A stretch of 64,000 nt of DNA from Vulcanimicrobiota bacterium (lineage in GTDB: Bacteria; Vulcanimicrobiota; JAJTBE01): the NCBI GenBank assembly GCA_021107945.1, contig JAIORV010000023.1:56885-120884 (forward strand), read 5' to 3'. A program made the translations under genes and the position numbers. Shown piece by piece: positions 33,302-57,959 of this stretch (position 1 is the stretch's first letter; the number at the start of each line of letters is the position of its first letter). The notes under the pieces are model-generated. The model saw only the letters and a program-made list of their open reading frames with translations. It was not told where the DNA came from and did no database searches.

Positions 33302-33339
33302 CTAATTTAAGATAATTATTTGATCAGGAGGAGAGTAAG

Positions 33340-34167
33340 ATCAATAGAAAGCAGAAAACAATTGAGAGGGCATTTTCCCTGGAAGGAGTGGGACTGCATA
33401 CGGGAGAGTTATCCCGCATCAGAGTGGAGCCGAGTTGCATCGATGGGAGAATCGTCTTCCACGGAGAAGGAAAAGACATTCCCGCATTAGTGGAAAATGT
33501 CATCAGTACGAAACGCTGCACCACGCTTGGCAAAGACGGAGTGAAAATTCATACTGTCGAGCATCTTCTCTCTTTATGTTATGCAATGGGAATTGACAAC
33601 CTGAATATATATTTTGAAAGCAATGAGCTTCCCATACTCGACGGGAGTTGCAAAGACCTTGCAATAGCTTTTCAGTCAGCAGGAATAAAAGTACTCGACG
33701 CCTTGAAGAAAGTAATTGCAATTGACAGGGAAATCAGTATTGTCGATGGTGACTCGATTATTACGGGAATGCCGTCGGCTAATTTTTCAATAGGATGTAT
33801 GATCGATTATAATCACCCTGTTGTAGGCGTTCAGACACTCTTTTACAGGGACGATAACGATGATTTTCTTCAGAATTTTGCCCCGGCCAGAACTTTCGGA
33901 TTCTGGGAAGAAATCGAGAAACTTCGCGAGATAGATCTGGCAAGAGGGGGAAGCCTTGATAACGCCCTTGTAATTAAAAAAGACGGCTATATGATGCCGC
34001 CTCGTTTTCCCGATGAGATTGTCAGGCACAAAATTCTCGACATGCTGGGAGATATGTCTCTTTCCGGAGCACAGATCCAGGGGCATATATTTGCAATAAA
34101 GCCCAGCCATAAATTAAATGTTCAATTTGTAAAAGAAATGGTAAGTATTCAGTCCTCCCCCAAATAA
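33340..34167 (+). CDS. lpxC: UDP-3-O-acyl-N-acetylglucosamine deacetylase, with a probable ATC start
   Basis: GVGLHTG and HTVEHLLSLCYAMGIDN..ELPILDGS motifs. No ATG/GTG/TTG lies between the in-frame stop at 33313 and the conserved N-terminus. AGGAGGAG-6 nt-ATC at 33340. Confidence 0.85.
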   Translation: MNRKQKTIERAFSLEGVGLHTGELSRIRVEPSCIDGRIVFHGEGKDIPALVENVISTKRCTTLGKDGVKIHTVEHLLSLCYAMGIDNLNIYFESNELPILDGSCKDLAIAFQSAGIKVLDALKKVIAIDREISIVDGDSIITGMPSANFSIGCMIDYNHPVVGVQTLFYRDDNDDFLQNFAPARTFGFWEEIEKLREIDLARGGSLDNALVIKKDGYMMPPRFPDEIVRHKILDMLGDMSLSGAQIQGHIFAIKPSHKLNVQFVKEMVSIQSSPK

Positions 34168-34339
34168 GAGTGGAATCTTGCATGAAAATCGAGGCTGGAA
34201 GCTTCTCCTGCATTGAGGGGGTTAGATAAATTTAAATATGATGGAATATGTTTAAAGGTAAAAAGCCCGGTTAATAGAATAATTCGTCCCGATACACGGG
34301 ACTTATAACCACCGGAAACATCTGGATCAGGAGGTAAAA

Positions 34340-34780
34340 ATGATACAAATAAGAGAAATTCTGAATATTCTACCCCATCGGTACCCCTTTGTGATGGTAG
34401 ATCGAATCCTCGAAATTGAGGAGGACAAAAGGGCAGTCGGTATAAAAAACGTTACCATCAACGAGCCCTTCTTTCAGGGGCATTTCCCCGGTTTGCCCAC
34501 CATGCCGGGAGTGATGATAGCTGAGTCAATGGCCCAGGTGGGCGGTATAATGTTAATGACATCCAGGAAAGAGGAAAAATTGGTACCTTACCTGGCCGGA
34601 ATTCAAAAACTGCGTTTCAAGAAGCCTGTCTATCCGGGTGACACTCTTTATATTGAAGTAGAATTAATAGGAAAAAAAGGGGGAATGGGCAAGGTCAGTG
34701 GCACCGCCAAGGTGGATGATGAAATTGTTGCGGTGGGTGAAATGTTATTTGCCCTTGTTCCGGAAAGTGAAGTGAAATGA
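34340..34780 (+). CDS. fabZ: 3-hydroxyacyl-ACP dehydratase FabZ
   Basis: LPHRYPFVMVDRI, GHFPG.PTMPGVM and AESMAQ motifs. 146 aa. Confidence 0.95.
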   Translation: MIQIREILNILPHRYPFVMVDRILEIEEDKRAVGIKNVTINEPFFQGHFPGLPTMPGVMIAESMAQVGGIMLMTSRKEEKLVPYLAGIQKLRFKKPVYPGDTLYIEVELIGKKGGMGKVSGTAKVDDEIVAVGEMLFALVPESEVK

Positions 34781-35862
34781 TTCCAATAGCAAAACCGATA
34801 ATAGATTCGGCAGAAAAAAAAAGGGTAATGGAAGTTCTCGATTCAGGAATGCTCTCAATCGGTAAAGTAGTTAAAGAATTCGAGGAAGCATTTGCCAGAT
34901 TCACTGGAGCCAGGTATGCCGTGGCAACGTCTTCCGGTACGACGGCGCTTCATATGGCACTGCTTGCAAGCGGCATCAAGCCCGGAGATAAAGTCCTGAC
35001 AACCCCGTTCTCATTTGTGGCGACGGCAAACTCAATCCTTTATTGCAACGCGGTTCCCGTGTTCTGTGATGTGGAAGAGGGAACATGCAATATTGATCCG
35101 GATCGGATTGAAGAGGCGCTTAAGAATGACGAAGAAATAAAAGCTCTTCTCATTGTCCATCTGTATGGACAACCCTGCAATATGGATAGAATAATGAAGC
35201 TCGTGCAGAAGTATGACCTAATACTGGTGGAAGACGCCGCCCAGGCGCATGGAGCGCTCTACAAGGGAAAGCATGGGGGCACATTCGGAAATGCCGGTGC
35301 ATTCAGCTTTTATCCGACCAAGAATATGACCACTGCAGAGGGCGGAATGATAATCACCGATGATGAAAAAGTCCATCAGGATCTGAAGCTTCTCAGGGAG
35401 CATGGCGGTGCGGGCGATTATGACCATATAATGTTAGGTTACAATTATCGAATGACGAATATTGAGGCGGCTATTGGATTGGTACAACTGGAAAAACTGA
35501 CAGGCTTCAACAACAGGAGACGTGAAAACGCCGCATATTATGACTCCCATCTATCCAATCTTGACTGGCTGGAGATTTTAGAAAAACAAACCGACTGTCT
35601 TCACTGTTATCATCAATATACTATCCGTGTAAAAAAGGACAGGGACAGGTTTGTGGAGTACCTTAAAGAAAACGGCATAGGATGTAAAGTCTATTATCCC
35701 CATACAATACCTTCTCTACCGTTATACAAGGAGAAAGGTTATAACGGCCTGCCCTTTCCCGTGTCCGGGAAGCTCTGTGACGAGGTGGTGTCCATACCGG
35801 TACACCCTTCAGTTTCCGATGAGGACAGGGAGAAAATCGTAAAGGTAATAAAAGACTGGTAA
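34777..35862 (+). CDS. DegT/DnrJ/EryC1/StrS-family PLP sugar aminotransferase (GnnB/ArnB-like)
   Basis: Family pattern (ATSSGTTALHMAL, VEDAAQAHGA, SFYPTKNMTTAEGG). 4-nt ATGA overlap with fabZ. Confidence 0.85.
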   Translation: MIPIAKPIIDSAEKKRVMEVLDSGMLSIGKVVKEFEEAFARFTGARYAVATSSGTTALHMALLASGIKPGDKVLTTPFSFVATANSILYCNAVPVFCDVEEGTCNIDPDRIEEALKNDEEIKALLIVHLYGQPCNMDRIMKLVQKYDLILVEDAAQAHGALYKGKHGGTFGNAGAFSFYPTKNMTTAEGGMIITDDEKVHQDLKLLREHGGAGDYDHIMLGYNYRMTNIEAAIGLVQLEKLTGFNNRRRENAAYYDSHLSNLDWLEILEKQTDCLHCYHQYTIRVKKDRDRFVEYLKENGIGCKVYYPHTIPSLPLYKEKGYNGLPFPVSGKLCDEVVSIPVHPSVSDEDREKIVKVIKDW

Positions 35863-36052
35863 TTATTCAACCTCCTGAAATACTTCTCATTCTATCAGGA
35901 GGAATTTAAAATAAACCGCAAATCTACAATAAATAGAAACGGGAATCGGGAAATGAGAAACGGGATCCGGTCACAATCCGGCCTGCATTCTCCATTCTCT
36001 GACATCTGATGTTGTAGATTATTACAAGACGACCAAGGAAGGAGAGATTCCT

Positions 36053-36847
36053 ATTTCCAGGATACATCCAACAGCAATTATCGAGGATGGTGCCAGGATA
36101 GCAGAAGATGTGGAAATCGGCCCTTTTACTATAATCGGTAAGAATGTAATAATAGGAAAGGGAACAAAAATACATTCTTCCGTACTTATAAACGGCTGGA
36201 CAACCATCGGTGAAGACAATGAGATATATAAGGGAACCGTCATAGGTGAAGAACCCCAGGATATGAAATACAAAGGCGAGAAGAGTTATGTCATAATCGG
36301 CGACAGGAATAGTTTCAGGGAGTATGTAACAATCCATCGCGCCGCTGACGCTGGTGGGGCCACGATAATCGGAGATGAAAACCTGCTGATGAATTATATT
36401 CACGTGGCTCATAACTGTGTTCTGGGAAACCAAATTGTAATAGCCAATATGGTGGGGTTTGCCGGACATGTCACAATTGAAGATCAGGTGGTTTTCGGTG
36501 GATTGAGTGGGATACACCAGTTCGTCCGCATTGGCAAAATGGCAATGATTGCGGGATATTCAAAGGTTCTTCAGGATATACCCCCGTTTTCTCTTGTGGA
36601 GGGACAGCCCGCCCGAATATTGGGTTTGAATATTCCCGGTCTAAGGCGAAGAAAAGTGCAACCCGATTCGAGAAATGCTCTGAAAAAAGCGATAAACATC
36701 ATAAAAAGCAGGAAATTTAAACGCACAGATGCCCTTGAAGTGATAAGGAAAGAAGTTGATATCACACCGGAAGTTGAGCATCTTCTTCAATTCATGTCCA
36801 ATCCCTCAAAACAGGGAATACTAATGCAATCGGCCAAGAGAAGCTAG
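36053..36847 (+). CDS. lpxA: Acyl-ACP--UDP-GlcNAc O-acyltransferase, with a probable ATT start
   Basis: N-terminus (M)SRIHPTAIIEDGARI, hexapeptide repeats and a C-terminal LpxA helical domain. No canonical start lies between the in-frame stop at 35954 and the conserved IHPTAI. GGAGAG-6 nt-ATT at 36053. Confidence 0.85.
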   Translation: MSRIHPTAIIEDGARIAEDVEIGPFTIIGKNVIIGKGTKIHSSVLINGWTTIGEDNEIYKGTVIGEEPQDMKYKGEKSYVIIGDRNSFREYVTIHRAADAGGATIIGDENLLMNYIHVAHNCVLGNQIVIANMVGFAGHVTIEDQVVFGGLSGIHQFVRIGKMAMIAGYSKVLQDIPPFSLVEGQPARILGLNIPGLRRRKVQPDSRNALKKAINIIKSRKFKRTDALEVIRKEVDITPEVEHLLQFMSNPSKQGILMQSAKRS

Positions 36848-37280
36848 GGGAGGGCGGATGTGAGGGTATCAAATTGTCAGCCAAGAATGCTGACACTCCA
36901 CCCATCACGTAGCGCGGGTTTTTAAACCCGCCAAAACGAGGAGGTCTGAAGACCTCTGTTATAAAAAATCTCTCCTTCAAATGATATAGAGAGAGGAAGT
37001 CTCGATAAAGAAAGAAGATTATTTTGAAGTAGATCTCCGGAGTAGAGATCCTTCACTGTGAAAGACTTCGGAAGTAAGCAATACCCGCTCTTGCCAGGGT
37101 TTATCCAGTAAATTAAAAGATCGTATTCCGCTCAGGATGACACGCCGGGGGATCGTCTTTGATGAGGTCCTTCGTAGTGTAATACATATTCCCGTCCCTA
37201 CCGGGGCTTATCCGGTAACCACAAGGATCATCTTTCGCCAATGTTCTGCTTAACAGTCCCATAACGGCTGAATCAGGAGT

Positions 37281-37344
37281 AATAAAAATGCAGATTCCAT
37301 CGAGCTTTATAAGTTTGATGAAATCTGCATTTTAAGGTTTTTTA
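37281..37344. terminator. Bidirectional stem-loop terminator between the lpx operon and hppA
   Basis: 11-bp stem AAATGCAGATT/AATCTGCATTT (37286-37296 and 37322-37332). T-runs follow on both strands. Confidence 0.6.
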
Positions 37345-37456
37345 AGATGGATGTTGGGGACAGACTTTTTTAAAAAGTTTCTTCCCCAAATGTTCTTTTA
37401 TTACTACAGATAAAACTCCGCGCCCTCCGCGCTCTCTGCGTTGAAAAATCAAAAAT

Positions 37457-39538
37457 CTATTTCAAAAATATCCAGTCAATAAGCGACATTGTCATTCCTG
37501 CAAATACAGGCGCAAACACGAGAGAGACAACTGTCATCAACTTGATGAGGATATTCATCGACGGTCCTGATGTGTCTTTGAAGGGGTCACCCACCGTGTC
37601 TCCGACAACTGCCGCCTTGTGAGCGAGGGATCCTTTGCCGCCTAAGTTTCCTTCCTCGATCCATTTTTTTGCGTTGTCCCATATCGCCCCGGTATTCGAC
37701 ATAAATATTCCCAGAAGGACTCCTGTTACAACTGCGCCTGCAAGGAATCCGCCAAGAGCTTCCTTTCCAAGAACAAAACCGATTAACAGCGGGGAGATAA
37801 CCGCCAGAACTCCGGGTATGATCATCTCTCTTAATGAACCGTCTGTTGCAATAGAAATACATTTATCCACATCGGGTTCAGCTTTGCCTTCCATCAAACC
37901 CTTTATTTCTTTAAACTGCCTTCTGATCTCTTTCACAAGTAAATTTGCCGCTTTTCCCACAGCTTCCATTGTCAGTGCGGCAATTATGAAGGGCATAAGT
38001 CCGCCCAGCAAGAGTCCGACAATTGTATTCACATTTGTCAGGTCAATTCTGTCAACGTGTGCCGCTTTTTGATAAGCTGAGAAAAGTGCAAGTGCCGTTA
38101 TTGCGGCGGATCCGATGGCGAATCCCTTTCCGATGGCGGCTGTTGTATTGCCGAGAGAGTCCAGTTTGTCTGTAATCTTTCGGATTTCCGGTCCCGCGCC
38201 GCTCATTTCCGCTATACCTCCGGCGTTATCCGCAATTGGCCCGTAACTGTCGGTTGTCATTACAACTCCTACGGTTGCAAGCATTCCGACACCGGCAAGA
38301 GCAATAGCATAAAGCCCACCGAGACCCGGGTCAACATTAGGTTGTACAGATCCAAGGGAATATGCCACATAAATCGCCACACAAAGTGCAAGAAGGGGTA
38401 AAATGCAACTCTTGAAACCCACGGCCATACCACCGATAATGGTAGTGGCGGGTCCTGACTCACATTGCTTTGCCACTTCCTTAACCGGCGGACCCGAGGT
38501 AAAGTATTCACTGAAGATCCCTATCAATACCCCGCATATCATTCCGGCAAGAATAGCCCAGAACATATGGAGTGATCCTATCATATACCATGTAAGGATT
38601 CCGGCTCCTATCAGGAAGAGAATTCCAGCGATGTATGTGGAATTTCTCAGCGCTGATTGAGGATCCATTTTCTTTAAAATATGCATCGAGTTGATACCGA
38701 TGAAGGAGCATATAAGCCCAATGGTTATAAGAAGAATTGGGAATGAAATCCATTTCAACTGCCCCTGTACCGTATTTGCCATGATTGCTCCTATGGCAAT
38801 TGCGGCGACGACCGATCCCACATATGACTCGAACAGGTCTGCGCCCATTCCGGCAGTATCGCCCACATTATCACCCACATTATCAGCGATGACACCAGGA
38901 TTCCGTGGGTCGTCCTCGGGAATACCCGCTTCGATCTTACCCACAAGATCGGCTCCGACGTCCGCACTCTTGGTGTATATGCCGCCTCCAACTCTTGCGA
39001 ATAGAGCTATGCTGGATGCACCCATCGCAAATCCGCTGATAATCATCGGTGCCGTTGTGGGATTACCCCTGGTGAAATAAAAAAGGACTCCGAGTCCCAC
39101 AACACCAAGCGAGGCAACTAGAATTCCCATAACCGATCCGCCAAGAAATGCTACCGAGAGAGCGGCCGGTGTTCCACCGTCTTTTGCCGCTTGGCAAGTT
39201 CTCACATTTGCCTTGGTGGCCGCTTCCATGCCGAGCCATCCCGCGCCCATCGAGCAAAGAGCGCCAAAAAGATAGGCTAAACCTGTCCACCAACCTATAG
39301 CCTCATTATTTGGTCCCTTGATAAGAAGACCCAATGCCAGGAATACTATTACCATAAAAATAGCAATAATCGAGTATTCCTTCCTGAGAAATACCATTGC
39401 CCCCAGGTGGATCTTGTCGGCTATATCTTGCATTTTCTTATTTCCCGGCGAGTATTTACGAACGGAAAAATAGGTCAAAACTGCAAAAAGGATACCTGCA
39501 ATCCCTATCCAGGGAGTGTAAATCGTCCATGCTGACAT
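37457..39538 (-). CDS. hppA: Membrane-bound proton/sodium-translocating pyrophosphatase
   Basis: [36 protein letters not shown] and [12 protein letters not shown] motifs. The start is ATG 39538 (MSAWTIY) with GGAGG upstream. Confidence 0.95.
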
Positions 39539-39640
39539 GACAATCCTCCAAACCGGTAATTTTATTGAACTCAATATCCTGAATTCTGTTTCTATTTCGA
39601 GTCGATTATTCCTTTTCGAGTAGGTTATTACTTCTACTTG

Positions 39641-39724
39641 TGACCACACTCCGAACGAAGACACGAAGTTCACGAAGAATCCTTAGATTAAAAAATTCCG
39701 TGTCCTCCGTGGCTTCGTGGTAAA
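39641..39724. repeat. Inverted pair of the purine-heptamer element (ACGAAG flavour) in the hppA/ribU-like divergent region
   Basis: CGAACGAAGACACGAAGTTCACGAAGAAT, AT spacer, then ATTCCGTGTCCTCCGTGGCTTCGTGG. Confidence 0.75.
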
Positions 39725-39876
39725 TTCCAACTTTACTCATACCACTTTAAAAGGTTTTTTTCGACAACTTCAAGTGGAAAACGGGAAAGAAGGATCCCGG
39801 ATGTAAAAGGTTAATTAATAATGTTAAGTAAAACGAAATAAAAAGTATTTGAGCTTATAATTTTTCGGAGACAATT

Positions 39877-40494
39877 TTGAAAAGAAGTAACAACGGACTT
39901 AAAAGAATAATACAGATTTCCCTCCTCGCGTCTGTGGCAACGCTCCTCATGTTGATACAGATTCCCTACCCCGGCGCAGGATGGCTAAAATTTGACATTT
40001 CCAATATTCCCGTTTTAATCGGGGGTTGCGCCCTGGGGCCCATTGCAGGTTTGCTCATCGTAATTATTAAGCTTTTTCTTTTCGGTATTATCCGGTCTTC
40101 TCCGGGAGAACTTATGGGGCTGCCGATGAACCTTATCGCAAACGGAACACTCGTACTCGTAACTTCTTACATTTACCGCAGAGTGAAAACACAAGAGAAT
40201 GCCCTTTTCTCCCTTTTTGTAGGCGTTATCGTATCCACGCTAATCATGATACCTGCAAATTATTTTGTTCTGCCGCTTTATTTGAAATTTTTCGCACCAA
40301 ATATCCCAATACCGCCGCCGTCACAGATGTTAACCATGCTCTTTACGGTTGTAATTCCCTTCAACCTGATAGCGGGATTTTTGAATATTTCACTTACATT
40401 TATAGTGTATAAACGAGTTTCAGCTTTCATAAGACCTGATGCCCAGATAAATCTTCAATCAGGCAAAGATGTCAGAGCAAGATCTCGGGGGTAA
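39877..40494 (+). CDS. ECF transporter S component, RibU-like
   Basis: Six-TM pattern with IPYPGAGWLKFDISNIPVLIGGCALGP, resembling riboflavin S components. TTG start. No ECF A/T genes nearby. Confidence 0.65.
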   Translation: MKRSNNGLKRIIQISLLASVATLLMLIQIPYPGAGWLKFDISNIPVLIGGCALGPIAGLLIVIIKLFLFGIIRSSPGELMGLPMNLIANGTLVLVTSYIYRRVKTQENALFSLFVGVIVSTLIMIPANYFVLPLYLKFFAPNIPIPPPSQMLTMLFTVVIPFNLIAGFLNISLTFIVYKRVSAFIRPDAQINLQSGKDVRARSRG

Positions 40495-40522
40495 TATTTG
40501 GTCTGATTATTGTTTATTGCAT

Positions 40523-40993
40523 ATGGAAAATAATTCTAACATAAATAAAGACATACAAAATAATGCTCATGATTCACAATCAGAGCAAATCAATTCTCCA
40601 CAGGATACCGGGATGAGCTTGAAATTCCGGTTGATTTTATTTTTTCAGGTTATACTCACCGCAATATGTTACCTGTATATATGGTATTCTCCCGGTGTCA
40701 GGGGAACAGGGGGGATTTCGTCATCTCTCAACCCACCTGCCATATATCCCGCCATCCTCGCATTTATTCTTGTATTCATTGCTTTCTTAAGTTTTGTTTT
40801 ACCGACATTTACAAAAAAAATGTTTTTTACAGGAGCCTTTTTTTCATCAATCCTGCAAAGCATCGTAACATTGGTTTTTTTCCTTTTTTTATGTATATTT
40901 ATTCTTACAACACTTAATGTAACAGGAAGCTTTGCACGTATTCCCTTAATTGATCCCATACCTTTTCTTAAGTGGGCAAAGTTCCTGATTTGA
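40523..40993 (+). CDS. Small polytopic membrane protein
   Basis: ORF with 4 hydrophobic segments. I prefer ATG 40523 over the track start 40469. Confidence 0.5.
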   Translation: MENNSNINKDIQNNAHDSQSEQINSPQDTGMSLKFRLILFFQVILTAICYLYIWYSPGVRGTGGISSSLNPPAIYPAILAFILVFIAFLSFVLPTFTKKMFFTGAFFSSILQSIVTLVFFLFLCIFILTTLNVTGSFARIPLIDPIPFLKWAKFLI

Positions 40994-41001
40994 TGTAATT
41001 A

Positions 41002-41061
41002 TTCACCGCAGAGTTCGCAGAGGACGCAGAGATTTAAATTCTTTGTGGTCTTTGCGGTGAA
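41002..41061. repeat. Inverted pair of the purine-heptamer element (TTCACCGCAGAGTTCGCAGAGGACGCAGAG / CTTTGTGGTCTTTGCGGTGAA)
   Basis: Starts 8 nt after the stop at 40993. The arms differ by purine transitions that would pair as G-U in RNA. Confidence 0.85.
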
Positions 41062-41074
41062 TAGGTATTAAACA

Positions 41075-42625
41075 ATGAAAGTAAATAACAAAATAAAATA
41101 TTTTCTCTTATTACTGATTGTAGGGGTATTTCTTTCATATTTTGTAAGACAACCCTATCTTAAATATTGCGCCGTCTCACCGGAATCGCTGGTGGAAATA
41201 AATATCGCAAGAAATATCGCCGATGGAAAGGGATTCACATTATCCATTAAAGAAACATATGACCTGGACACACCGGTTGTACATTCTGCCGCCGGAGAGA
41301 GAGGACTTCTTTATCCTCTTATCATAAGCTCCTTTATAAACAAAACTATGAACATTCACTGGATTAATATCTTCCTGAGCCTGCTGTCCGCTATATTATT
41401 TTTCTACCTCATAAAGAATACCCTCAACTTGCAGGCTGCCTGGCTTTCATTTATCACGCTGATATTTTTCCCTCTTACAAATATGGCGGCATCATATCTC
41501 TGGAATTACACCCTGATTATCTTTTTCCTGATTCTTTCATGCCTTGTTTTATCAGTATGGAAATCAAAATACAGCAAGATTATCGCCGGAGGGATCCTGA
41601 GCATATGCTTCTGGTCCGATCCCTGGGCTCTTTTTTACATCTTCGCATTCATCCCCGGGCTATTACTATCAGAAAAAAACATCAGGGAGAGCATAAAAAC
41701 CACAGGCCTGTTCATGCTGGGTTTTCTCATTGTCTCATTTCCTCTTCTATTATGGATTTTCTCGATATACAACACACCATTTCCGCCACGCATGCCGGCC
41801 TATTTTCAGGTGAAAGACTACAGCATCTATCTATGGAAGAGCTTCGGATACAAGCTTCCCGGTACTATTGCGTTTATTGCCGGGAATAAAGCTTGGGTTA
41901 TGTCTGCCATTTGGGACAACATTAAAACATATTCCTCACATATAGCCTCCCGCAAAAACGCCCTCATTCCCCTACTCGGGCTTCTTATTTCCTTACCCAC
42001 ACTATTTTTCTTCCGGAACGAAGACAATCCCCGTTTCCCTCGGAAATATGCCCCGCTTCTCTCGTTTTCACTATGCTATTTCATTGGAACCTGCCTATTC
42101 TGGTCCAGCAGGGATTTCATAAAGCCATTGATTTTCTTCCCCATTTTTGTCATCCCTCTTGTCTATTATTTCCTATGTCGGGTTCAGGTAAAAAAATTCC
42201 CTGTGGGACTGCTGGCGGCGGTTTTACTGATGATATTTACACTGAACAATTATATCGCCCTGAATTACAACAATGTCAGCATAAAACTGGCGGCGGATGA
42301 CTACAAAAGAATTTCAGCCGTTCGTGATGATACCACGGAATGGATTAATTCAAATGCAAAAGAAAATGAAAATGTGGCGGCGGTTTATCCTTGGATTGTC
42401 AATTTCCAGACACGACAACCGGCGGGAATCCTCCCCGACAACCTGACTTCGGAAAAACTCAGTGAATTATTGCAAAAATTCAACTATAATTACATTATGA
42501 TAAATGACTCCGGGGAAAAAGCTGAGAGTATCAATAACATAATCGAAAATGACATAATAAGCTGGTTGGTTTTGGCAAAACCGGGACTATGGAGAATTCA
42601 GCCCGAGTTTTTCCCGAAAGAATAG
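41075..42625 (+). CDS. GT-C fold glycosyltransferase-like membrane protein (ArnT/PMT-like)
   Basis: 516 aa with more than 10 TM segments and a C-terminal soluble domain. Adjacent to a GT2 polyprenyl-phosphate glycosyltransferase. Confidence 0.55.
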   Translation: MKVNNKIKYFLLLLIVGVFLSYFVRQPYLKYCAVSPESLVEINIARNIADGKGFTLSIKETYDLDTPVVHSAAGERGLLYPLIISSFINKTMNIHWINIFLSLLSAILFFYLIKNTLNLQAAWLSFITLIFFPLTNMAASYLWNYTLIIFFLILSCLVLSVWKSKYSKIIAGGILSICFWSDPWALFYIFAFIPGLLLSEKNIRESIKTTGLFMLGFLIVSFPLLLWIFSIYNTPFPPRMPAYFQVKDYSIYLWKSFGYKLPGTIAFIAGNKAWVMSAIWDNIKTYSSHIASRKNALIPLLGLLISLPTLFFFRNEDNPRFPRKYAPLLSFSLCYFIGTCLFWSSRDFIKPLIFFPIFVIPLVYYFLCRVQVKKFPVGLLAAVLLMIFTLNNYIALNYNNVSIKLAADDYKRISAVRDDTTEWINSNAKENENVAAVYPWIVNFQTRQPAGILPDNLTSEKLSELLQKFNYNYIMINDSGEKAESINNIIENDIISWLVLAKPGLWRIQPEFFPKE

Positions 42626-42639
42626 ACTGAATTTTACTA

Positions 42640-42669
42640 TTTACCGCAGAGATCGCAGAGGGCGCGGAG
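42640..42669 (+). repeat. Single purine-heptamer element (TTTACCGCAGAGATCGCAGAGGGCGCGGAG)
   Basis: Starts 14 nt after the stop at 42625. Confidence 0.8.
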
Positions 42670-42847
42670 ATAAGAATAAGAGAACAATATTAGTTCTGAA
42701 AAAGACTGTCCTGATTTAATTAACTCTTTGGGGAAATTTGAAAATAAACCACAAAGAAGGAAAGAATGGAAAAACGAAAGTCTGTCCTCTGACTTACGGA
42801 CTGAGGGTATCGATAAACTTCAAAATCCCGGTTATTAAGAGTCATTA

Positions 42848-42935
42848 TTTTACCCCAGAGGACACAGAGAACACAGAGATGTCAATGATTTTTTCTCCGG
42901 TTATCCTCTGCGGACTCCGCGATCTCTGCGGTGAA
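42848..42935. repeat. Inverted pair of the purine-heptamer element (CCAGAG/ACAGAG flavour)
   Basis: TTTACCCCAGAGGACACAGAGAACACAGAG, spacer, then TTCTCCGGTTATCCTCTGCGGACTCCGCGATCTCTGCGGTGAA. Confidence 0.8.
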
Positions 42936-42973
42936 AAAAACACTTACTCGACAACTCTTTGCAGTGAATTATT

Positions 42974-43828
42974 ATGAACAAATTTACAAGAATAATATTA
43001 CTCCCCGTTTATAACGAGGAAAACACTCTTGAAGAAGAGTTAAATAAGCTCCTTGACAAAGGAGATGTTTTTATTATCGTTAATGACGGCTCAACCGACA
43101 TCAGCGGCGATATTATATTAAAATGGATAGAGAATCATAAAAAAACTCTTCAAATAGATTCCACAGAAAACCATATTAACAAACTTGATTCAGACAAAGT
43201 GAAACATCACATAGAGAAGCATATAAAATCATCCGGCGATATCTCCGGGTATAAATATTTAGCGGGAAAAAGCCGGTCTGTTATATATATCGAATTTCCC
43301 GTAAACAAGGGGAAATCGTCAGCGTTGCAGGAGTGCTTCAAGATTATTCTGAGCTTGTATGAGGACAGTATCTTCAAAGGTGAGGATACAATAATAGTTA
43401 CCGACGCCGACGGACAATTGCCTGCAGACATTATTAGCTCCGCGACGAATTACCTGAAAAAAGAAAACCTGGATATGCTGATTGGCAGGCGGGATTTTAC
43501 TTCTTACCCTCTATTCAAACGACTGGGCAACTATTTTCTAAGCAGGCTTGCTGCAATTTTAACGGGATTTAACTTTCATGACACACAGTGCGGGTTCAGG
43601 ATATTCACAATATCGGTATTGGAAAAGATCCTTCCATATTATCACGCGAGGGGTTATTCATGTGAGCAGGAGTTATCGCTGATTCCCGTTCTCCTGGGGA
43701 TGAAGCTTGACAACACCTTCCCCGTCGAGCCTGTGTATTACAGATCAAATTCCACAATTACAGATGCATTTTATATAACTCTGGATAGCTTTGCAACGTG
43801 GTTGAAGGTGAAGAAGGGGTTATTATAA
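42974..43828 (+). CDS. GT2 polyprenyl-phosphate glycosyltransferase (DPM1/ArnC/GtrB-like)
   Basis: LLPVYNEE, VNDGSTD, TDADGQ (DxD) and QCGFRIF motifs. Contains an internal roughly 60-aa insertion. Confidence 0.8.
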   Translation: MNKFTRIILLPVYNEENTLEEELNKLLDKGDVFIIVNDGSTDISGDIILKWIENHKKTLQIDSTENHINKLDSDKVKHHIEKHIKSSGDISGYKYLAGKSRSVIYIEFPVNKGKSSALQECFKIILSLYEDSIFKGEDTIIVTDADGQLPADIISSATNYLKKENLDMLIGRRDFTSYPLFKRLGNYFLSRLAAILTGFNFHDTQCGFRIFTISVLEKILPYYHARGYSCEQELSLIPVLLGMKLDNTFPVEPVYYRSNSTITDAFYITLDSFATWLKVKKGLL

Positions 43829-43914
43829 TGCCGGAGGTCGGAATCGAACCGACACGAACGATTATGTTCCCGGGATTTTAAGTCCCGTGCGTCTACCAGT
43901 TCCGCCACTCCGGC
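43829..43914 (-). tRNA. tRNA-Leu (anticodon UAA), type II with a long variable arm
   Basis: The cloverleaf was folded by hand: acceptor GCCGGAG/CTCCGGC, anticodon stem CGGGA/TCCCG with loop CTTAAAA, T arm GTCGG-TTCGATT-CCGAC, discriminator A. It abuts the GT2 stop codon. Confidence 0.93.
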
Positions 43915-43993
43915 ATTAACAGGAATATTTTACATTAAATTTCGTATATTGTAAAGTCTTTTTTGGTTTTTTTTATTACCACATCCAGACGAA

Positions 43994-44036
43994 CCCATCT
44001 TGACGGTGATTTAAAATACAAGTATAATAAACCCAT
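43994..44036 (+). promoter_or_regulatory. Consensus sigma70 promoter (TTGACG-17-TATAAT), copy 1 of a 43-nt direct repeat
   Basis: -35 at 44000-44005 and -10 at 44023-44028. Repeated at 44989-45031 with 2 mismatches. Confidence 0.75.
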
Positions 44037-44056
44037 TCCCCTTGGAGGCAGTGTTT

Positions 44057-44233
44057 ATGAGCGACCAATCCAGTATAAGATCCAACCTTCACTATATAAT
44101 TGAAGCTCTGCCGGAGAGAGAAGAAGATTCCAAAGGGGAAATTGTGAATAGGTGTCCGATATCCCACAAGAAAAATTTACCGGAGATGATTTCGAGTGAC
44201 CATATACAGGCATACCAAGCAGGAACTTATTGA
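44057..44233 (+). CDS. Small ORF (58 aa) downstream of promoter copy 1, possibly a degenerate antitoxin-like duplicate
   Basis: GGAGG lies 8 nt upstream. Its LHYIIEALPEREE motif resembles ELIDLVRQIPEEE of the next ORF. Overlaps that ORF out of frame. Confidence 0.3.
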   Translation: MSDQSSIRSNLHYIIEALPEREEDSKGEIVNRCPISHKKNLPEMISSDHIQAYQAGTY

Positions 44234-44423
44234 CCTTGTCAGACAAATCCCGGAGGAAGAATTTCAAACTGCATTCAGGTTCCTGGAATTCCTTGCAAGC
44301 CTTCCCGGGGAACCTCCACTGACCGATGAAGAGAAGGCGGAATCCAGTGAGAATTGGCAGGCTATCCTCAGAGGTGAGGGTATTCCATGGGAGGAAGTCC
44401 GGGAGGAGCTTGCCGATGAGTGA
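44196..44423 (+). CDS. Putative antitoxin of the RelE/ParE pair
   Basis: 75-aa acidic ORF with a GTG start. 8-nt overlap (ATGAGTGA) with the toxin gene. Confidence 0.6.
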   Translation: MTIYRHTKQELIDLVRQIPEEEFQTAFRFLEFLASLPGEPPLTDEEKAESSENWQAILRGEGIPWEEVREELADE

Positions 44424-44694
44424 CATAGATTCTTCCGGCCGTCCATGGAGGGTGATAATTCCACCCAAAATTGCCCGGCAAATGAGGCGGCTTCAACCCG
44501 GGGAGCAAGGCCGTATTAAGGGGGCGATTGACAGTCTCAGAAATTTTCCGCACCAGGGCGATCTGAGGGACCTCAAGCCAAACCCGGAATGGCGCCTTAA
44601 AGTTGGAACCAGGAGGATACTTTTCAAGATAAATAAGAAGGAACACATTATCGGTATAATTCGAATCGGCTCAAGAGGGGATGTTTATAAGTAA
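44416..44694 (+). CDS. RelE/ParE-family type II toxin
   Basis: 92 aa. The pattern KIARQMRRL...I..L...P..GD.R.LK....WRLKVGTRRILFKI...EHIIGIIRIGSRGDVYK is typical of RelE/ParE. Confidence 0.8.
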   Translation: MSDIDSSGRPWRVIIPPKIARQMRRLQPGEQGRIKGAIDSLRNFPHQGDLRDLKPNPEWRLKVGTRRILFKINKKEHIIGIIRIGSRGDVYK

Positions 44695-44988
44695 TAGAAG
44701 GGTAAATTCGAAATATAGAAGAGATTTATTGGGAATTCTTATTATCTTATCGTAGCCCGACATATTCTGCAGGGAGAGTTACAGAGGAAGTCATGCTCAT
44801 GAAGGAGCCAATTTATTCAATATGAAGGTGAAAGAAGTATTTTTTTTTGGATGCATTTGATCGAAATTTACTAAATCACCCAAGAGGAAAAATGTCCGAC
44901 GACCTGATGCTTATGCTTGAAAATGGACAACTTGAGGGGATAGATAATCAGTATAGGTTTATTCTAAAAAAAAGAAGCTCCACACACT

Positions 44989-45031
44989 CCCATCTTGACG
45001 GTAATTTAAAATACAAGTATAATAAATCCAT
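44989..45031 (+). promoter_or_regulatory. Consensus sigma70 promoter, copy 2 of the 43-nt direct repeat
   Basis: TTGACG 44995-45000, 17-nt spacer, TATAAT 45018-45023. Lies about 70 nt upstream of ATG 45093. Confidence 0.75.
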
Positions 45032-45092
45032 CTCTGATCCAATTTGCCAGGTGACCCGAACAATAACCATTCATATAAAAGGAGCCTCTGAA

Positions 45093-45890
45093 ATGTTAGG
45101 CCGACTTAAAATGCCCATATGTATCCTCATCATAACCCTGATTGCGGGAGCGATAGGTTATCTGTTTACTGGACAAAAACTGGAGCAACAAAGAAGACTT
45201 TTCCTGAAGCAAAGACTGACGAAGCTCGACAACCAACTCCGGGAGTTGGGAGTACAAGTATGCATTATCCAGACAAGCAAGTCATCTCCTTCCATAAAGC
45301 ATGGCCATATGTTCGCCCTTCTCGACTTCTGGGAAACAGATTACGATAAGACAAGTAAGAATCTGGAGAAAATAAAAGACACTATCAATGAATATGTCAA
45401 GTTGAGAAATAATGAAAGACAGGTTGGCGCAATCCGTTACCTCAACAAGGACGGCTTTGATCTGGAAGAGGTTTTGAAAGGACAGATAAAAACCGAGTTG
45501 GATGAGAAAGATTTCGAGCAGAATGAAGCTATCAAGGAATATACCGCCGAGCTGACCAACAAGCTCTGGGCGGCATATGAAGCCTTTCAATTGAGTAGAA
45601 AAGATTTGAGGTTTAAGATAATCCCGCAGGTTACAATCGACGACACAACAGAACAGGTAAAGGCGGAGGAGAAATATTTCTATGTCCGGTTTAACAATAT
45701 TACAAATATAGAATTGAGGAAGGAGATACGAAAAGTCTATAAGAGACTTAGCAATTTTGACCTTGCGAGGGGAGACAAAATTTATTTTGATAACTATCCC
45801 CGGGAAAATTATGATCTGATCAACAGGATGACTAAATATGCAGGTGTCTCTCCCCTGTCCGATCAGGTTATTCTTATAGATAAATTATAA
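45093..45890 (+). CDS. Hypothetical membrane-anchored coiled-coil protein, 1 nt from the MacB-like permease gene
   Basis: AAAGGAG lies 7 nt upstream of the ATG. N-terminal TM segment PICILIITLIAGAIGYLF. The stop lies 1 nt before the next ATG. Confidence 0.65.
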   Translation: MLGRLKMPICILIITLIAGAIGYLFTGQKLEQQRRLFLKQRLTKLDNQLRELGVQVCIIQTSKSSPSIKHGHMFALLDFWETDYDKTSKNLEKIKDTINEYVKLRNNERQVGAIRYLNKDGFDLEEVLKGQIKTELDEKDFEQNEAIKEYTAELTNKLWAAYEAFQLSRKDLRFKIIPQVTIDDTTEQVKAEEKYFYVRFNNITNIELRKEIRKVYKRLSNFDLARGDKIYFDNYPRENYDLINRMTKYAGVSPLSDQVILIDKL

Positions 45891-45891
45891 A

Positions 45892-47112
45892 ATGGATATC
45901 TGGATTACAATAAAAGTGGCTATCAAAGCCCTCATCAAGAACAAAATGCGCACATTACTTACGATGCTTGGAATTATTATCGGCGTTGGATCAGTAATTG
46001 CTATGATTTCTATTGCCACCGGCGCACAGAAAGACATGAGCGGCAGGATTGAATCCTCAGGCACAAACATGCTCATGGTATTTGCTTCTTCCGGGAAAAG
46101 TAGGGGGGGACTCAGCCGTGGATGGGGATCGATCCAGACTTTGACTGTGAAAGACAGCGAAGCTATTGCGAAATACTGCCCACACGTCGAGTATGCCTCT
46201 CCACAGATTCGCGTTACAGCAAGGCTTATTTATCAAAATCAAAACTGGAGTACGGCCGTAAGAGCGGGGAACGAAAATTATATTGATATAAGGAACTGGG
46301 GAACGCAATCCGGAAGATCCTTTACCACAAGTGAGGTCACTTCCGGAGCGAAAGTATGCATGATAGGTACTGTGGTAAGGGACAACCTGTTCGGTGATTT
46401 AAATCCTGTGGGGAAAACAATAAGGATAAACAAGATTCCCTTTCTTGTTGTCGGTCTTCTGGAGGAAAAGGGGCAGGGCGGATGGCATGGAAACTGGGAC
46501 GATGTGGCTATCATTCCCCATACCACAGCGATGCAGAGACTGCATAAAAAAGATCACCTTTCCATGGTAACGGTATCCGCCACGGATCGTTATGATATAA
46601 GCAAGGCAAAAGAAGAAATTAAAATGCTTTTAAGGCAACGCCATCGTATTAAAAAAGGCGAGGAAGACGATTTCATAATCCGCACCCAGGAAGACAGACT
46701 TCAGGCAGCGGGGGACACCTCACGCTTTCTGTCCCTTCTTCTGGGTTCAATAGCCTCAGTATCGCTTCTGGTGGGGGGTATAGGCATCATGAACATCATG
46801 CTTGTATCCGTGACAGAACGGATAAGGGAAATCGGCATAAGAATGGCAATCGGAGCAAGACAGAAAGACATACTGCTTCAGTTCATCGCAGAGGCTATTG
46901 TATTATCCCTACTGGGGGGAATAATAGGTGTCGGGTTCGGATATGGCGTTTCAAAACTAATCAGCATATTTACCAAATGGACAACTTTTGTAACAATTCA
47001 TTCAATAATTCTCTCTATGGGGTTTTCCGGGGCAATCGGGCTGTTTTTCGGATTCTATCCTGCATGGAAAGCGTCAAAACTGGACCCCATAGAAGCTTTG
47101 CGTAATGAATAA
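45892..47112 (+). CDS. MacB/LolC/DevC-type ABC transporter permease (MacB_PCD plus FtsX domains)
   Basis: N-terminus IKALIKNKMRTLLTMLGIIIGVGSVIAM, a large periplasmic loop, and a C-terminal FtsX pattern (GGIGIMNIMLVSVTERIREIGIRMAIGA). No ATPase gene adjacent. Confidence 0.85.
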   Translation: MDIWITIKVAIKALIKNKMRTLLTMLGIIIGVGSVIAMISIATGAQKDMSGRIESSGTNMLMVFASSGKSRGGLSRGWGSIQTLTVKDSEAIAKYCPHVEYASPQIRVTARLIYQNQNWSTAVRAGNENYIDIRNWGTQSGRSFTTSEVTSGAKVCMIGTVVRDNLFGDLNPVGKTIRINKIPFLVVGLLEEKGQGGWHGNWDDVAIIPHTTAMQRLHKKDHLSMVTVSATDRYDISKAKEEIKMLLRQRHRIKKGEEDDFIIRTQEDRLQAAGDTSRFLSLLLGSIASVSLLVGGIGIMNIMLVSVTERIREIGIRMAIGARQKDILLQFIAEAIVLSLLGGIIGVGFGYGVSKLISIFTKWTTFVTIHSIILSMGFSGAIGLFFGFYPAWKASKLDPIEALRNE

Positions 47113-47135
47113 TAATCCCGGATAATGCTTTTAAA

Positions 47136-47165
47136 TTCACCGCAGATTTCGCGGAGTGCGCAGAG
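47136..47165 (+). repeat. Purine-heptamer element (TTCACCGCAGATTTCGCGGAGTGCGCAGAG)
   Basis: Starts 23 nt after the stop at 47112. The partner pyrimidine arm lies at 47329-47357. Confidence 0.8.
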
Positions 47166-47328
47166 AAATTATTATATTATATATTGGTTCACTGCCAATT
47201 AATCGCATCAATTTTCAGGCATTCTCCGATATAGTTTTATACCGTCGATAAATAAACTTTTTCCCGATAAAAAGCTAAAACACGATAATTACAAGATTTC
47301 AAACGCATTTTCAGGGATTAAAAAAAGT

Positions 47329-47357
47329 CCTTTGCGTTCTTTGCTTCTTTGCGGTTA
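47329..47357. repeat. Pyrimidine arm (CCTTTGCGTTCTTTGCTTCTTTGCGGTTA) of the same family
   Basis: Nearly identical to 2122-2147. Confidence 0.8.
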
Positions 47358-47403
47358 ATTTTAGTCCTCCAAATATTTACCCACATTGATTATCAAAGAC
47401 AGC

Positions 47404-48429
47404 TTATATATTATCCAGAAAATCACTGATGCAAAGCAGTTTCTTCTCTTTTTCTCCTGCAGGATCAATATTGTAGAGATCAGTTTTCCCATCTTCTTCC
47501 CGGAGAAAATATATTTTATTCTTTGAAATTCTCGGGAACCTGCTAATTTTATCAGGGGAGGTAAGTTGAGTTTCTTCTCCTGTTTCCAGATCAAATTTGG
47601 ACACCACAAAATTTTCATCGATTTTGCGATTGAAAATCAATACATTTCCAAGGGGGAATATTTCCGGTGTAAAATTACCTTCTATCTTTATTGGCTCCGT
47701 TTTTCCATTATCGAAGTCGAACAGCACTACATTAAAATTTCCCTCGCTGGAAAGAAGATTCTTATAATCAATCGACACAATAATCATTTTCTTACCAATT
47801 GGAGTGAAATCCAGGATAAATTCATCATAAGAAGCAATCTTCTTTTTACTGTTCCAGACTATATCCATCGTGTAAATATCACTCTGGTATGTATATAATA
47901 CCAGGTCTTCATCAAGCCAATTCCAGGCGCGTCCCAATCCCTCCACCTTACCGACCGCGTCAATTTTCTCATAATAAAGTAATTGCGTTTTCTCCTCGTC
48001 AAGAATAATATTCTTTATATTTTTCTCTTCCAGCTTTGCACTTTCCGGGATTATTGAAATATTTCTCAACAGGTACCCCACGCTTTTTCCTTTTTTTGAG
48101 AAATGGAAGTATTCGAGAAAAAGGACAGAGTGTTGGACGATTCCCTCAATCATCTCCTTACTCCCCTCATCCTCAATTTCCACGGCGTTCAACCCGCTTA
48201 ACACCCCGATAAATAGAAGCTTGTTTTGTGCCGGATGCCATTCCATGTGGGTGATTGAAGTTTCATGATGCTCAAAAATCTTTTTTCCCATCTCCAGATT
48301 AAATATTAATAGATCATGGTGCTCATCTTCAGATTCACTTTTTGATCTCAGCTTTACAGCGGCAAATTTCCCGTTCTGGGAGACCCTGAGATCCTGAAGT
48401 TTATATTTTGTTTCAACCTGGTTGGCCAT
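47404..48429 (-). CDS. Hypothetical beta-propeller-like protein (TolB/WD40-like repeats), AT-rich gene
   Basis: 341-aa ORF with alternating beta-strand-like repeats. No signal peptide. The family call is weak. Confidence 0.5.
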   Translation of the reverse strand: MANQVETKYKLQDLRVSQNGKFAAVKLRSKSESEDEHHDLLIFNLEMGKKIFEHHETSITHMEWHPAQNKLLFIGVLSGLNAVEIEDEGSKEMIEGIVQHSVLFLEYFHFSKKGKSVGYLLRNISIIPESAKLEEKNIKNIILDEEKTQLLYYEKIDAVGKVEGLGRAWNWLDEDLVLYTYQSDIYTMDIVWNSKKKIASYDEFILDFTPIGKKMIIVSIDYKNLLSSEGNFNVVLFDFDNGKTEPIKIEGNFTPEIFPLGNVLIFNRKIDENFVVSKFDLETGEETQLTSPDKISRFPRISKNKIYFLREEDGKTDLYNIDPAGEKEKKLLCISDFLDNI

Positions 48430-48513
48430 GTGACTCGACTCCTTCCGTTTTTTGAGGAAAATTTCTTATGTGTGATCGGTAGTTTTGATGATGGAAAGGT
48501 CTGTTCCTGCTGA

Positions 48514-50220: not shown

Positions 50221-50312
50221 ATCAATCCTTTATAAATGTTTTCAAGTCTTCCAAAGTTATTAATTTTTGTATTACAATAATATTAAATTCATGATGAATA
50301 GTTCCTGCAACA

Positions 50313-50398
50313 GATGGGAAATGGGAATGGGGAATGAGAATGGAATCGCGATTCGTTATCCTTATTCCATCTTCCTTATTCCTTATTCCCTATTCCAT
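50313..50398. repeat. Inverted pair of heptamer arrays (GGGAAATGGGAATGGGGAATGAGAATGGAAT / TTATCCTTATTCCATCTTCCTTATTCCTTATTCCCTATTCCAT)
   Basis: A purine arm and a pyrimidine arm separated by 9 nt, in the divergent kinase / ATP-grasp intergenic region. Confidence 0.8.
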
Positions 50399-50586
50399 AA
50401 AGATATTTCTTTTAAGAGATAACAAAGATAACTTGGACAATTTTTCATAATGGTTTTGCTTTGTTAAACTTTTCTACCATAAGAGGTTTATCCAGGTTTT
50501 TGATGAATATAGCTCCATGCTTTGCATACAAAAGTAGAGTACAGTCTTGACGGATGGAATGCTCGAATAAAAAGGGAGGTTATCCT

Positions 50587-51480: not shown

Positions 51481-51499
51481 ATAAATAGTTGATTTAGAT

Positions 51500-52366: not shown

Positions 52367-52521
52367 TTTATTACCCGAATCAAGCATTATTTCTTGAGCA
52401 CTATAAGTATTTTTGAATATCCTTCATTCTTGTTAAGATAAATTAATATTTATTATATTGACAATTCGCAAGAAATTTATTATCATACATATTGACTATT
52501 ATCACTTCATGGGGGTTAGAT

Positions 52522-56458: not shown

Positions 56459-56827
56459 ATAAGGGGTTTAGGACAGCACCACAATTTATTGTGGTGAATT
56501 GGAGTGCAAACCCCACCACTACAGCGTCCTAACCACTTCAGTGGTTTATATCATCAAAAAAACCGTTGAAACGGTTAAATTGAGGTGGGAGGTAGGTTTT
56601 ATAGGCTTCTAACCACCCGATTAAAATCGGGTGTTGTCTTAAAAACTCGAAAAGTTTATAAATATTGTGAAATATGGCTATAAGGCTATTAAAGAATATT
56701 TCTCAATCGCATTTTTGACAAATTGAGTGATTTAATTAAAAGATATCAGGTGTGCGAAATCTAAAAAGACGTAATCCTGAACTTGTTTCAGGGCTTCAGT
56801 GTTCTCTGCGGTGAACAGTAACAATCC

Positions 56828-57814: not shown

Positions 57815-57959
57815 GATTCATCTCCGTATATAAGCTGTTTATAGTTATTAGTGATATTTTTTACCGCAAAGACCACAAAGGAAAATCGGATATTTTCATT
57901 GTTATAATAGGGACTTCCCTGAACCTGCTCAATATCCTGTAAACCTTTTTCGCGGACAC

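Follow-up and report, generated by a model that had tools for sequence, protein, structure and literature searches.

The 64,000-nucleotide (nt) stretch analysed here (the window) is C2:56885-120884 of the assembly of a Vulcanimicrobiota bacterium (GCA_021107945.1; 5.56 Mb, 215 contigs, 42% GC), and all positions given without a contig refer to it. A DUF4271 gene (stop at 40993) and an unknown gene (start at 41075), both on the + strand, enclose a gap of 81 nt that houses an inverted repeat at 41002-41061, reading TTCACC-GCAGAG-TT-CGCAGAG-GA-CGCAGAG-ATTTAAATT-CTTTGTG-GT-CTTTGCG-GTGAA. Folded as RNA, this element reaches -31.9 kcal/mol (z -7.4) on the + strand, which is the sense strand, and -17.8 kcal/mol on the - strand. 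Each arm consists of a TT(C/A/T)A(C/A)C terminus and two to three RCRRAG units at 9-nt spacing, and the two arms converge with their termini outermost; we refer to such sequences as GxxExxY-cassette arms, which is a working class and not a published family. An earlier note on this DNA, made from its letters alone, had described an interspersed repeat of TTCACC plus purine-rich units, and this repeat is real, as GCAGAGNNCGCAGAG at up to two mismatches matches the window 17 times against 0.53 expected, a number reached in none of 100 shuffles. What that reader could not see from the window alone is that the arms are the termini of a cassette with a GxxExxY nuclease gene that is found across phyla, and it is this connection that we develop here.

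The repeat is abundant in the genome. We counted 1,655 unit dimers (RCRRAG, 3 nt, RCRRAG), where about 29 would be expected; merged, the detections amount to about 1,487 arms at 1,173 loci, and in 1,121 arms TT[CTA]A[CA]C immediately precedes the first unit on its 5' side. The raw detections are overwhelmingly intergenic (1,566 of 1,728) in a genome that is 82% coding. Solo arms make up 919 of the loci, and inverted pairs with the TTCACC ends outermost account for 154, against a single locus with the reverse arrangement; convergent arms are in excess at spacers of 10-60 nt and out to about 500 nt (276 pairs versus 11 divergent). The C, C, A and G positions of the unit are fixed, the 9-nt spacing is strict, and at least 90% of the copies have purines at the variable positions, in agreement with the purine-only variation reported before. 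Compared in register, paired arms form stems of 7-bp blocks, the two nucleotides between blocks being mostly non-complementary; between the two arms of a pair the first variable position is uncorrelated (48% identical), and co-variation is seen at the third (81%) and the fourth (69%). Of the 142 short pairs, 92 can be grouped into subfamilies whose loops are conserved and whose flanks are unrelated, and thus whole hairpins, with their loops, are copied and recur at unrelated sites. Solo arms are polar with respect to genes, the TTCACC end being the closer one in 608 of 721 cases (medians of 47 versus 243 nt, p=8e-83), so that the outer end points toward the nearest gene. Such a polarity is expected if cassettes enter gene junctions and a mosaic then grows inside them. 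The intergenic regions are indeed mosaics, since the long spacers contain other repeat modules, including GGGAAA/TTTCCC-type arrays and hairpins of the repetitive extragenic palindrome (REP) type with a GTAG tag. Modules noted in long-spacer pairs (such as C10:67109-67354, C107:17568-17758 and C14:29060-29255) include purine/pyrimidine arrays of the form GGGAAA.../...TTTCCC, a CCTGCGCTGAAC...CAGGGCAGGC hairpin and GGAGGTTTTTAAACCTCC.

The genome was screened for cargo between convergent arm pairs with spacers of 250-1,500 nt, and the screen gave one intact open reading frame (ORF) of 130 amino acids (aa), at C13:16994-17433, which is a TIGR04256 GxxExxY protein (E=3.6e-44). The corresponding Pfam family, PF13366 (GxxExxY, a PD-(D/E)XK nuclease), has five matches in the genome, of which two are intact and three are fragments (on C113, C54 and C91), and convergent arms flank all five, on both sides in four and on the right side only in that on C165. 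The C13 cassette, with 30-nt arms and a 130/145-aa ORF, is placed between hdrA-like and mvhD-like genes; its ORF begins right after the third unit of the 5' arm and reads through the 3' arm, and its TGA overlaps the ATG of the next gene. Homologues with 71-79% identity are found in Ca. Brocadia, Jettenia, Deltaproteobacteria, Thermodesulfobacteriota and Aminicenantes, and at every homologue locus retrieved the nuclease gene lies between operon genes and is bracketed by TTCACC-type arms in the layout TTCACC/TAACC-(RCRRAG N3)x3-ATG ... (CTYYGY N3)x3-GGTGAA/GGTAAA. The translated arm, NNFPDS.R..R..R, is the C-terminal end in 64 of 111 homologues, and the stop codon of these is thus the TGA inside GGTGAA. 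Within the phylum, PF13366 occurs in five of the nine arm-positive genomes versus 13 of 392 others (Fisher p=1.1e-5), and the arms bracket the PF13366 gene in the genomes G081 and G053. An AlphaFold2 model of the cargo (mean predicted local distance difference test score 82) has Cas4 SSO0001 and lambda exonuclease as its best matches in the PDB (template modelling scores of 0.45-0.52), a predicted resemblance that does not go beyond the PD-(D/E)XK fold, and a PDB sequence search with the nuclease gave no match. PF13366 has been listed as "unknown", with multiple transfers between divisions (Steczkiewicz et al., PMC3424549).

Evidence for insertion comes from the cusB/cusA junction, which we compared in 16 genomes of the genus Brocadia (loci L267-L280). 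One genome (G413) has no insert there, and its cusB stop seems to overlap the cusA ATG (ATGA); four others (G401, G403, G405 and G408) have the TTCACC cassette. In G417, G414, G415, G407 and G409 the junction is taken up by a sister cassette whose arms read GAAACC-(ACAGAT NNC)x3 and whose GxxExxY gene is a different one. Three more genomes hold a decayed form of this sister cassette, and that of G410 contains a nested GIY-YIG ORF. The junction of G404 holds a third type, a cassette with heptad arms and an ORF for a four-helix bundle (S23p/Avd-like). As the same junction is either empty or holds one of three cassette types, we interpret it as an insertion polymorphism among sister species. In the filled alleles, the upstream gene has its TAA stop right ahead of the TTCACC end. 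The heptad cassette of G404 has ATGAT on each side, which is a possible 5-bp target duplication. The S23p-type family PF05635 is represented in our genome by one fragment, which is without arms, and Bacteroides finegoldii has no real PF05635 gene. Metagenome contigs were also scanned with the protein of 41075-42622 for strain-level presence or absence in the species of the window, and no relatives were found.

The distribution of the arms is sporadic. The exact 30-nt pattern occurs 167 times in this genome and not at all in the 40 nearest genomes, among which are one member of its family and two of its order, and the 27-nt version occurs 261 times here and in eight of 400 other genomes of the phylum at 1-15 copies each (reversed-pattern controls, 0); B. 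sinica has three copies of the 27-nt form. Thus, the search of related genomes proposed in the earlier note is empty for the close relatives, and the family was found farther afield. GTDB representatives gave at least 120 stretches with the 30-nt pattern; more than 12 phyla are represented, isolates included, at 41-70% GC. The matches listed are from Myxococcota, Acidobacteriota, Chloroflexota, Planctomycetota, Verrucomicrobiota, Thermodesulfobacteriota, Nitrospirota, Methylomirabilota and Gemmatimonadota, and further from Bacteroides finegoldii JCM 13345, Rhodovibrio, Shewanella, Sulfuricella, Thermotogae and a metagenome-assembled genome (MAG) of Methanoperedens; among these listed matches the copies are mostly gene-less solo arms or short pairs. 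The Methanoperedens copy (Candidatus Methanoperedens MAG, JBAQYK010000343.1) is an exact three-unit arm in a contig binned as archaeal, and could represent either a real transfer or a binning error. Viral contigs of IMG/VR carry the pattern in at least 120 stretches, and we estimate that about 0.1 chance matches would occur in 596 Gb of sequence. Long convergent pairs in the viral contigs enclose no uniform cargo and mostly ordinary phage genes. One viral contig (IMGVR_UViG_3300036768_001781) has seven copies of the arm, arranged as two tandem series (periods of 149 and 153 nt), which look like arrays of whole elements and not like isolated hairpins.

Based on the arms that bracket GxxExxY genes here and in other phyla, on the junction polymorphism, on the copying of whole hairpins and on the polarity of solo arms, we consider it probable, though well short of certain, that the arms form the terminal inverted repeats of a GxxExxY cassette of about 440 bp that spreads horizontally, and that the elements of the window are gene-less derivatives of it, belonging to about 1,200 loci of essentially selfish DNA. 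The intact cassette would be a stowaway at operon junctions. Its purine-rich 5' arm, which has GGAG/GAGG-like words and abuts the ATG of the cassette gene, would act as the ribosome-binding site, and the cargo ORF would often be translated through the 3' arm, whose 9-nt period equals three codons and gives an (S/T/P)-(L/P/Q)-R tail, before stopping at the TGA in GGTGAA, 2-8 nt ahead of the ATG of the next gene. With the upstream TAA, a ribosome-binding site in the 5' arm, a translated 3' arm and a TGA near the next ATG, the translational coupling of the operon would thus be kept. In RNA, the two arms plausibly pair as a stem of 7-bp blocks that RNase III could process, by analogy with the intervening sequences (IVS) of 23S rRNA. 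The nuclease would drive the spread. Gene-less forms, either two arms around a short loop, resembling miniature inverted-repeat transposable elements (MITEs) or REP doublets that form hairpins (REPINs), or single arms at the outer edge of mosaics, would lack a dedicated function in the host, apart from what a stable hairpin does incidentally.

Several observations weigh against this interpretation. No target-site duplication was found at TTCACC-type copies. The nuclease gene is present between the arms in only one of the 120 arm-bearing stretches listed from other genomes, and this genome has two intact nuclease genes for its roughly 1,200 loci; given so few genes for so many loci, the spread of gene-less copies needs action in trans or another engine. 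The Y1 transposase genes and REP sites of this genome, the latter often adjoining arms in a fixed relative orientation, make co-mobilization by that system conceivable. Unpaired arms of the ACGRAG flavour lie preferentially in the sense orientation behind genes (67:29), a bias that would fit a selected role in RNA or an orientation-dependent purging. The co-variation of units within an arm is unexplained by the cassette model: arms with three identical units number 119 of 322 in this genome versus 39 expected, and 162 of 323 in other genomes (L014-L253) versus 14 expected, which could be due to slippage, templated copying of one unit or subfamily descent. Lastly, the gene calls are those of a crude ORF-based caller made for this analysis.

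A bolder extension, which we regard as possible but doubtful, is that the cassettes belong to an undescribed pan-prokaryotic class of "operon-junction stowaways" that is also carried by phages. The arm would then serve several roles at once, as terminal inverted repeat, ribosome-binding site of the cargo, translated C-terminal tail (9 nt being three codons), stop of the cargo (TGA in GGTGAA) and Shine-Dalgarno-like lead-in (GGTGA) for the next host gene, so that the insert would leave translational coupling intact, and the 130-aa GxxExxY nuclease would be the mobilizing enzyme. The sister cassettes, with GAAACC-ACAGAT or heptad arms and S23p/Avd-like four-helix-bundle or GIY-YIG cargo, would be of the same class, and ORF-bearing rRNA intervening sequences would be its one long-known special case.

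The members of the family in the window are collected in Table 1 together with the homologous cassette loci. Of the 13 loci that the earlier note had listed, ten or eleven are clear members; those at 5435-5470 and 15159-15177 are degenerate and that at 56802-56815 is a single unit within ORFs. Its five tight inverted pairs were recognized correctly, and all have TTCACC outermost; the two arms between 47136 and 47357 do pair up, with a long spacer, and four further arms are solo. A tRNA gene (Rfam RF00005, 59.6 bits) lies at 43829-43914 (-), directly after the GT2 gene 42974-43828. In 33000-52999, sigma-70-like promoter matches are in excess (68 versus 46.9 +/- 6.6 in shuffles). The Rfam search of the whole window at gathering score found nothing beyond one tRNA, and at E<=1 within 39500-43100 nothing but a chance snoRNA match. 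The earlier reader knew of no named description of the repeat, and we found none for the arms in Rfam or in full-text literature searches by sequence string and family name: sequence strings gave chance primer matches alone, and no paper naming GxxExxY, PF13366 or TIGR04256 was found to describe the arms.

Table 1. Arms and arm pairs in the window (window positions) and loci of homologous cassettes in other genomes.
Feature	Position or junction	Strand	Remarks
Focal element, tight inverted pair	41002-41061	.	9-nt AT loop
Inverted pair, subfamily A	2086-2147	.	GCAAAG/ACAAAG arms; conserved loop ATTAAAAATAATTTT; right end GGTT; same-loop copies on other contigs
Degenerate solo arm	5435-5470	+	TTCACA-ACTGAG-GAC-GCGGAG; missed by strict arm detector
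Inverted pair, subfamily C	7891-7960	.	Left arm ACGAAG/ATGAAG; right arm CTTCGTG...CTCCGTGGTGAA
Solo arm, right half of subfamily B	13395-13437	-	Inner flank TTCTCCGTTTATC; TTCAAC end 34 nt behind stop of PQQ-repeat gene 13472-14830 (-)
Marginal match, doubtful member	15159-15177	+	TAACC-ACAGAA-GAC-ACAAA; strict detector negative
Solo three-unit arm	37416-37445	-	TTCAAC-GCAGAG-AGC-GCGGAG-GGC-GCGGAG; 11 nt behind stop of H+-pyrophosphatase gene
Inverted pair, subfamily C	39641-39724	.	ACGAAG units; divergent gap between start side of hppA and ECF S-component gene
Solo three-unit arm	42640-42669	+	TTTACC-GCAGAG-ATC-GCAGAG-GGC-GCGGAG; 14 nt behind stop 42625
Inverted pair, subfamily B	42848-42935	.	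ACAGAG arm; inner segment (...TTTTTTCTCCGGTTATC); CTCTGCG/CTCCGCG arm ending GGTGAA
Long-spacer pair	47136-47357	.	Arms 47136-47165 (+) and 47329-47357 (-), 163 nt apart; outer ends toward stops of convergent genes
Single unit + GGTGAA	56802-56815	-	Within overlapping ORFs; possibly chance match or old fragment
Solo two-unit arm	57862-57890	+	TTTACC-GCAAAG-ACC-ACAAAG
Homologue locus, Ca. Brocadia sinica	cusB/cusA
Homologue locus, Aminicenantes	xdhC/NTPase
Homologue locus, deltaproteobacterium	mqnD/PNP-family gene

Three other explanations, a role in RNA, mobilization by a Y1 transposase and an array of protein-binding sites, all rank below the cassette. The first is that of the earlier note, according to which the elements are modules of 3' untranslated regions (UTRs) that act in RNA and are kept by selection behind genes, be it as factor-independent or partial terminators, as barriers to 3' exonucleases or as RNase III sites, G-U wobble being the reason why purine transitions alone are tolerated. 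We consider it unlikely, although part of what it rests on holds. The hairpins are very stable, as exemplified by the focal element, the variable unit positions hold only purines, and in many cases the arm starts 8-50 nt past a stop; the distances given in the earlier note are correct (8, 11, 14, 23, 34 and about 116 nt). An inverted pair, however, reads purine-arm-first on either strand, and hence only solo arms and asymmetries between arms inform on orientation. The position of the purine arm after a stop therefore says nothing for pairs, and the TTCACC end of solo arms is directed toward a stop 377 times and toward a start 344 times; solo arms in co-directional gaps are 232 in sense and 199 in antisense. 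The 91 short pairs in co-directional gaps likewise show no strand preference, with 225 G-U pairs in sense versus 214 in antisense, mean folding energies of -23.8 versus -23.7 kcal/mol (48 versus 43 cases, p=0.86) and a location closer to the stop in 48 and closer to the start in 43. Thus, the proposal that arm mismatches are G-U-tolerant is borne out at 41002-41061, where the sense fold is the better one, but not genome-wide. In the window, 2086-2147 folds about equally on both strands, 39641-39724 folds better on the - strand (-31.6 versus -21.6 kcal/mol on +), and the better strand of 42848-42935 (-38.1 kcal/mol on - versus -27.6 on +) is antisense to both neighbouring genes.

Gene context gives the RNA-level explanation some support, as the short pairs taken together are mildly enriched in convergent gaps (22.5% versus a background of 15%), and the 67:29 sense bias of the unpaired ACGRAG arms (p=1e-4) is accompanied by a ratio of 39:13 between convergent and divergent gaps; the ACGRAG flavour is often found within composite units with GTAG REPs. 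Against it, divergent gaps still hold 19 of the 142 short pairs (13%), the first unit position is uncorrelated between the arms and the spacers do not pair, the elements are absent from all close relatives though these have the same kinds of genes, and in other phyla these arms enclose a mobile gene. In line with the remark that classic terminators are scarce, terminator-like sites in 33000-52999 are not enriched (27 versus 19 +/- 4.9 in shuffles), as this explanation would have it; a consensus terminator scan of the same region flagged none of the elements, and the hairpin is followed by a T-rich tail (six or more T among the next 9 nt) in 10 of 284 strand readings and by an A-rich tail in 35. 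With no U-tract and no overall preference for G-U pairs or for stops over starts, the 3'-UTR, terminator or RNA-stabilizer function that had been assigned to the family is not upheld. Classic intrinsic termination in particular was rejected for the missing U-tracts after the hairpins. A Shine-Dalgarno mimic was rejected as well, since only a small number of GGTGAA ends in this genome precede a start by 5-15 nt; the 3' end of the 16S rRNA gene, looked up in this connection, was not found in the assembly.

Mobilization of the arms by a Y1 transposase, of the REP-associated tyrosine transposase (RAYT) or IS200-like type, with the arms being of the REP/REPIN kind, moving alone or with the GTAG REP hairpins, and the GxxExxY link being secondary, is in our view quite unlikely. 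The genome does possess 13 PF01797 genes (e.g. G000:C73:13107-13445, C54:19555-19884 and C83:425-766) and 594 GTAGGAGGGA GTAG-tagged REP sites, the latter lying within 130 nt of 10-25% of the arms, mostly on the same strand; composite arm-plus-REP units recur, and arms occur as singlets alongside inverted doublets, as REPs and REPINs do. The RAYT-like transposases for which the earlier note had recommended a search are therefore present, but they are not flanked by arms: the 1.5 kb around the 13 genes contain six arms in all, which is about the genomic average, and none brackets a gene. The arms also lack a 5' GTAG-type tag beside a simple hairpin, starting instead with TTCACC and being built of 9-nt units, and genomes of many phyla, as well as viral contigs, have them in few copies, where the gene that they bracket is a different one. 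The comparison with REPs and bacterial interspersed mosaic elements (BIMEs) thus stands for the way in which the family populates the genome, as intergenic, hairpin-forming units in mosaics, and fails for the link to RAYTs. It is very improbable that the three direct 9-nt repeats are instead a DNA- or RNA-binding array for a host protein (like iterons or nucleoid sites) that marks gene boundaries and is kept for chromosome or transcript organization, as the strict spacing, the fixed C, C, A and G, the purine-only variable positions, the strong co-variation of the three units and the gene-ward TTCACC ends of solo arms are set against the failure to identify a candidate protein, the absence from the closest relatives, copy numbers of 1-15 in most carrier genomes and hundreds here, and a presence in phage contigs and an insertion polymorphism that fit mobile DNA better.

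A non-coding word of 30 nt that is nearly unchanged at 41-70% GC, in more than a dozen bacterial phyla, one archaeal MAG and many viral contigs, is unusual, because known REP-type repeats are lineage-specific. Its link to the GxxExxY genes gives the very large "function unknown" family PF13366/TIGR04256 a testable role, and the arms account for stray Arg-rich tails and "hypothetical" mini-ORFs in annotations. They also suggest a possible route by which intergenic regions grow from inside; the roughly 1,200 copies account for much of the intergenic sequence of this genome and probably for its fragmented assembly.

Among known systems, intrinsic terminators share with the elements a stable GC-containing hairpin, often soon after a stop codon, but the elements have no 3' U-tract, have longer loops and stems, and occur in both orientations and before starts too. 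Free-standing homing endonuclease genes of phages, of the T4 seg/mob type, are without long inverted repeats and without hundreds of gene-less hairpins. They are similar to the cassettes in that a small nuclease gene is present or absent at a fixed junction between genes and that PD-(D/E)XK and nested GIY-YIG ORFs (G410) compete for one site; to our knowledge, no cleavage specificity has been established for GxxExxY. As in MITEs, gene-less copies share terminal inverted repeats with a rarer gene-bearing form, remnants of the gene persist inside some copies (C113, C54 and C91) and there are subfamilies with near-identical members, whereas no DDE transposase and no target-site duplication is seen and the "autonomous" partner encodes only a 130-aa nuclease. 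REP/REPIN elements with their RAYT transposases and BIME mosaics are known from E. coli and Pseudomonas. They likewise are short, abundant, intergenic palindromes, occur as singlets and inverted doublets and in mosaics, and are absent from close relatives; unlike REPs, which are lineage-specific and consist of a GTAG tag and a simple hairpin, the arms are TTCACC followed by three 9-nt units that pair as 7-bp blocks with 2x2 internal loops, their sequence is conserved across phyla, and their partner is a PD-(D/E)XK nuclease gene, the Y1 genes not being flanked by arms.

The 23S rRNA intervening sequence of Coxiella burnetii carries an S23p/PF05635 ORF, and its excision by RNase III has been shown (PMC4990558). 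The cassette differs from such S23p IVS in its location between protein-coding genes and not in rRNA helices, in its GxxExxY cargo and 9-nt-unit arms, and in the massive gene-less amplification in this genome, and RNase III processing of its arms is putative. Both, however, are selfish elements of similar size (about 430-444 nt for the IVS; PMC4990558) with one small ORF within a terminal-inverted-repeat stem of about 28-30 bp, both are sporadic and horizontally acquired, and the S23p-like cassette of Brocadia G404 occupies the very junction at which the TTCACC cassette is inserted in other genomes of the genus.

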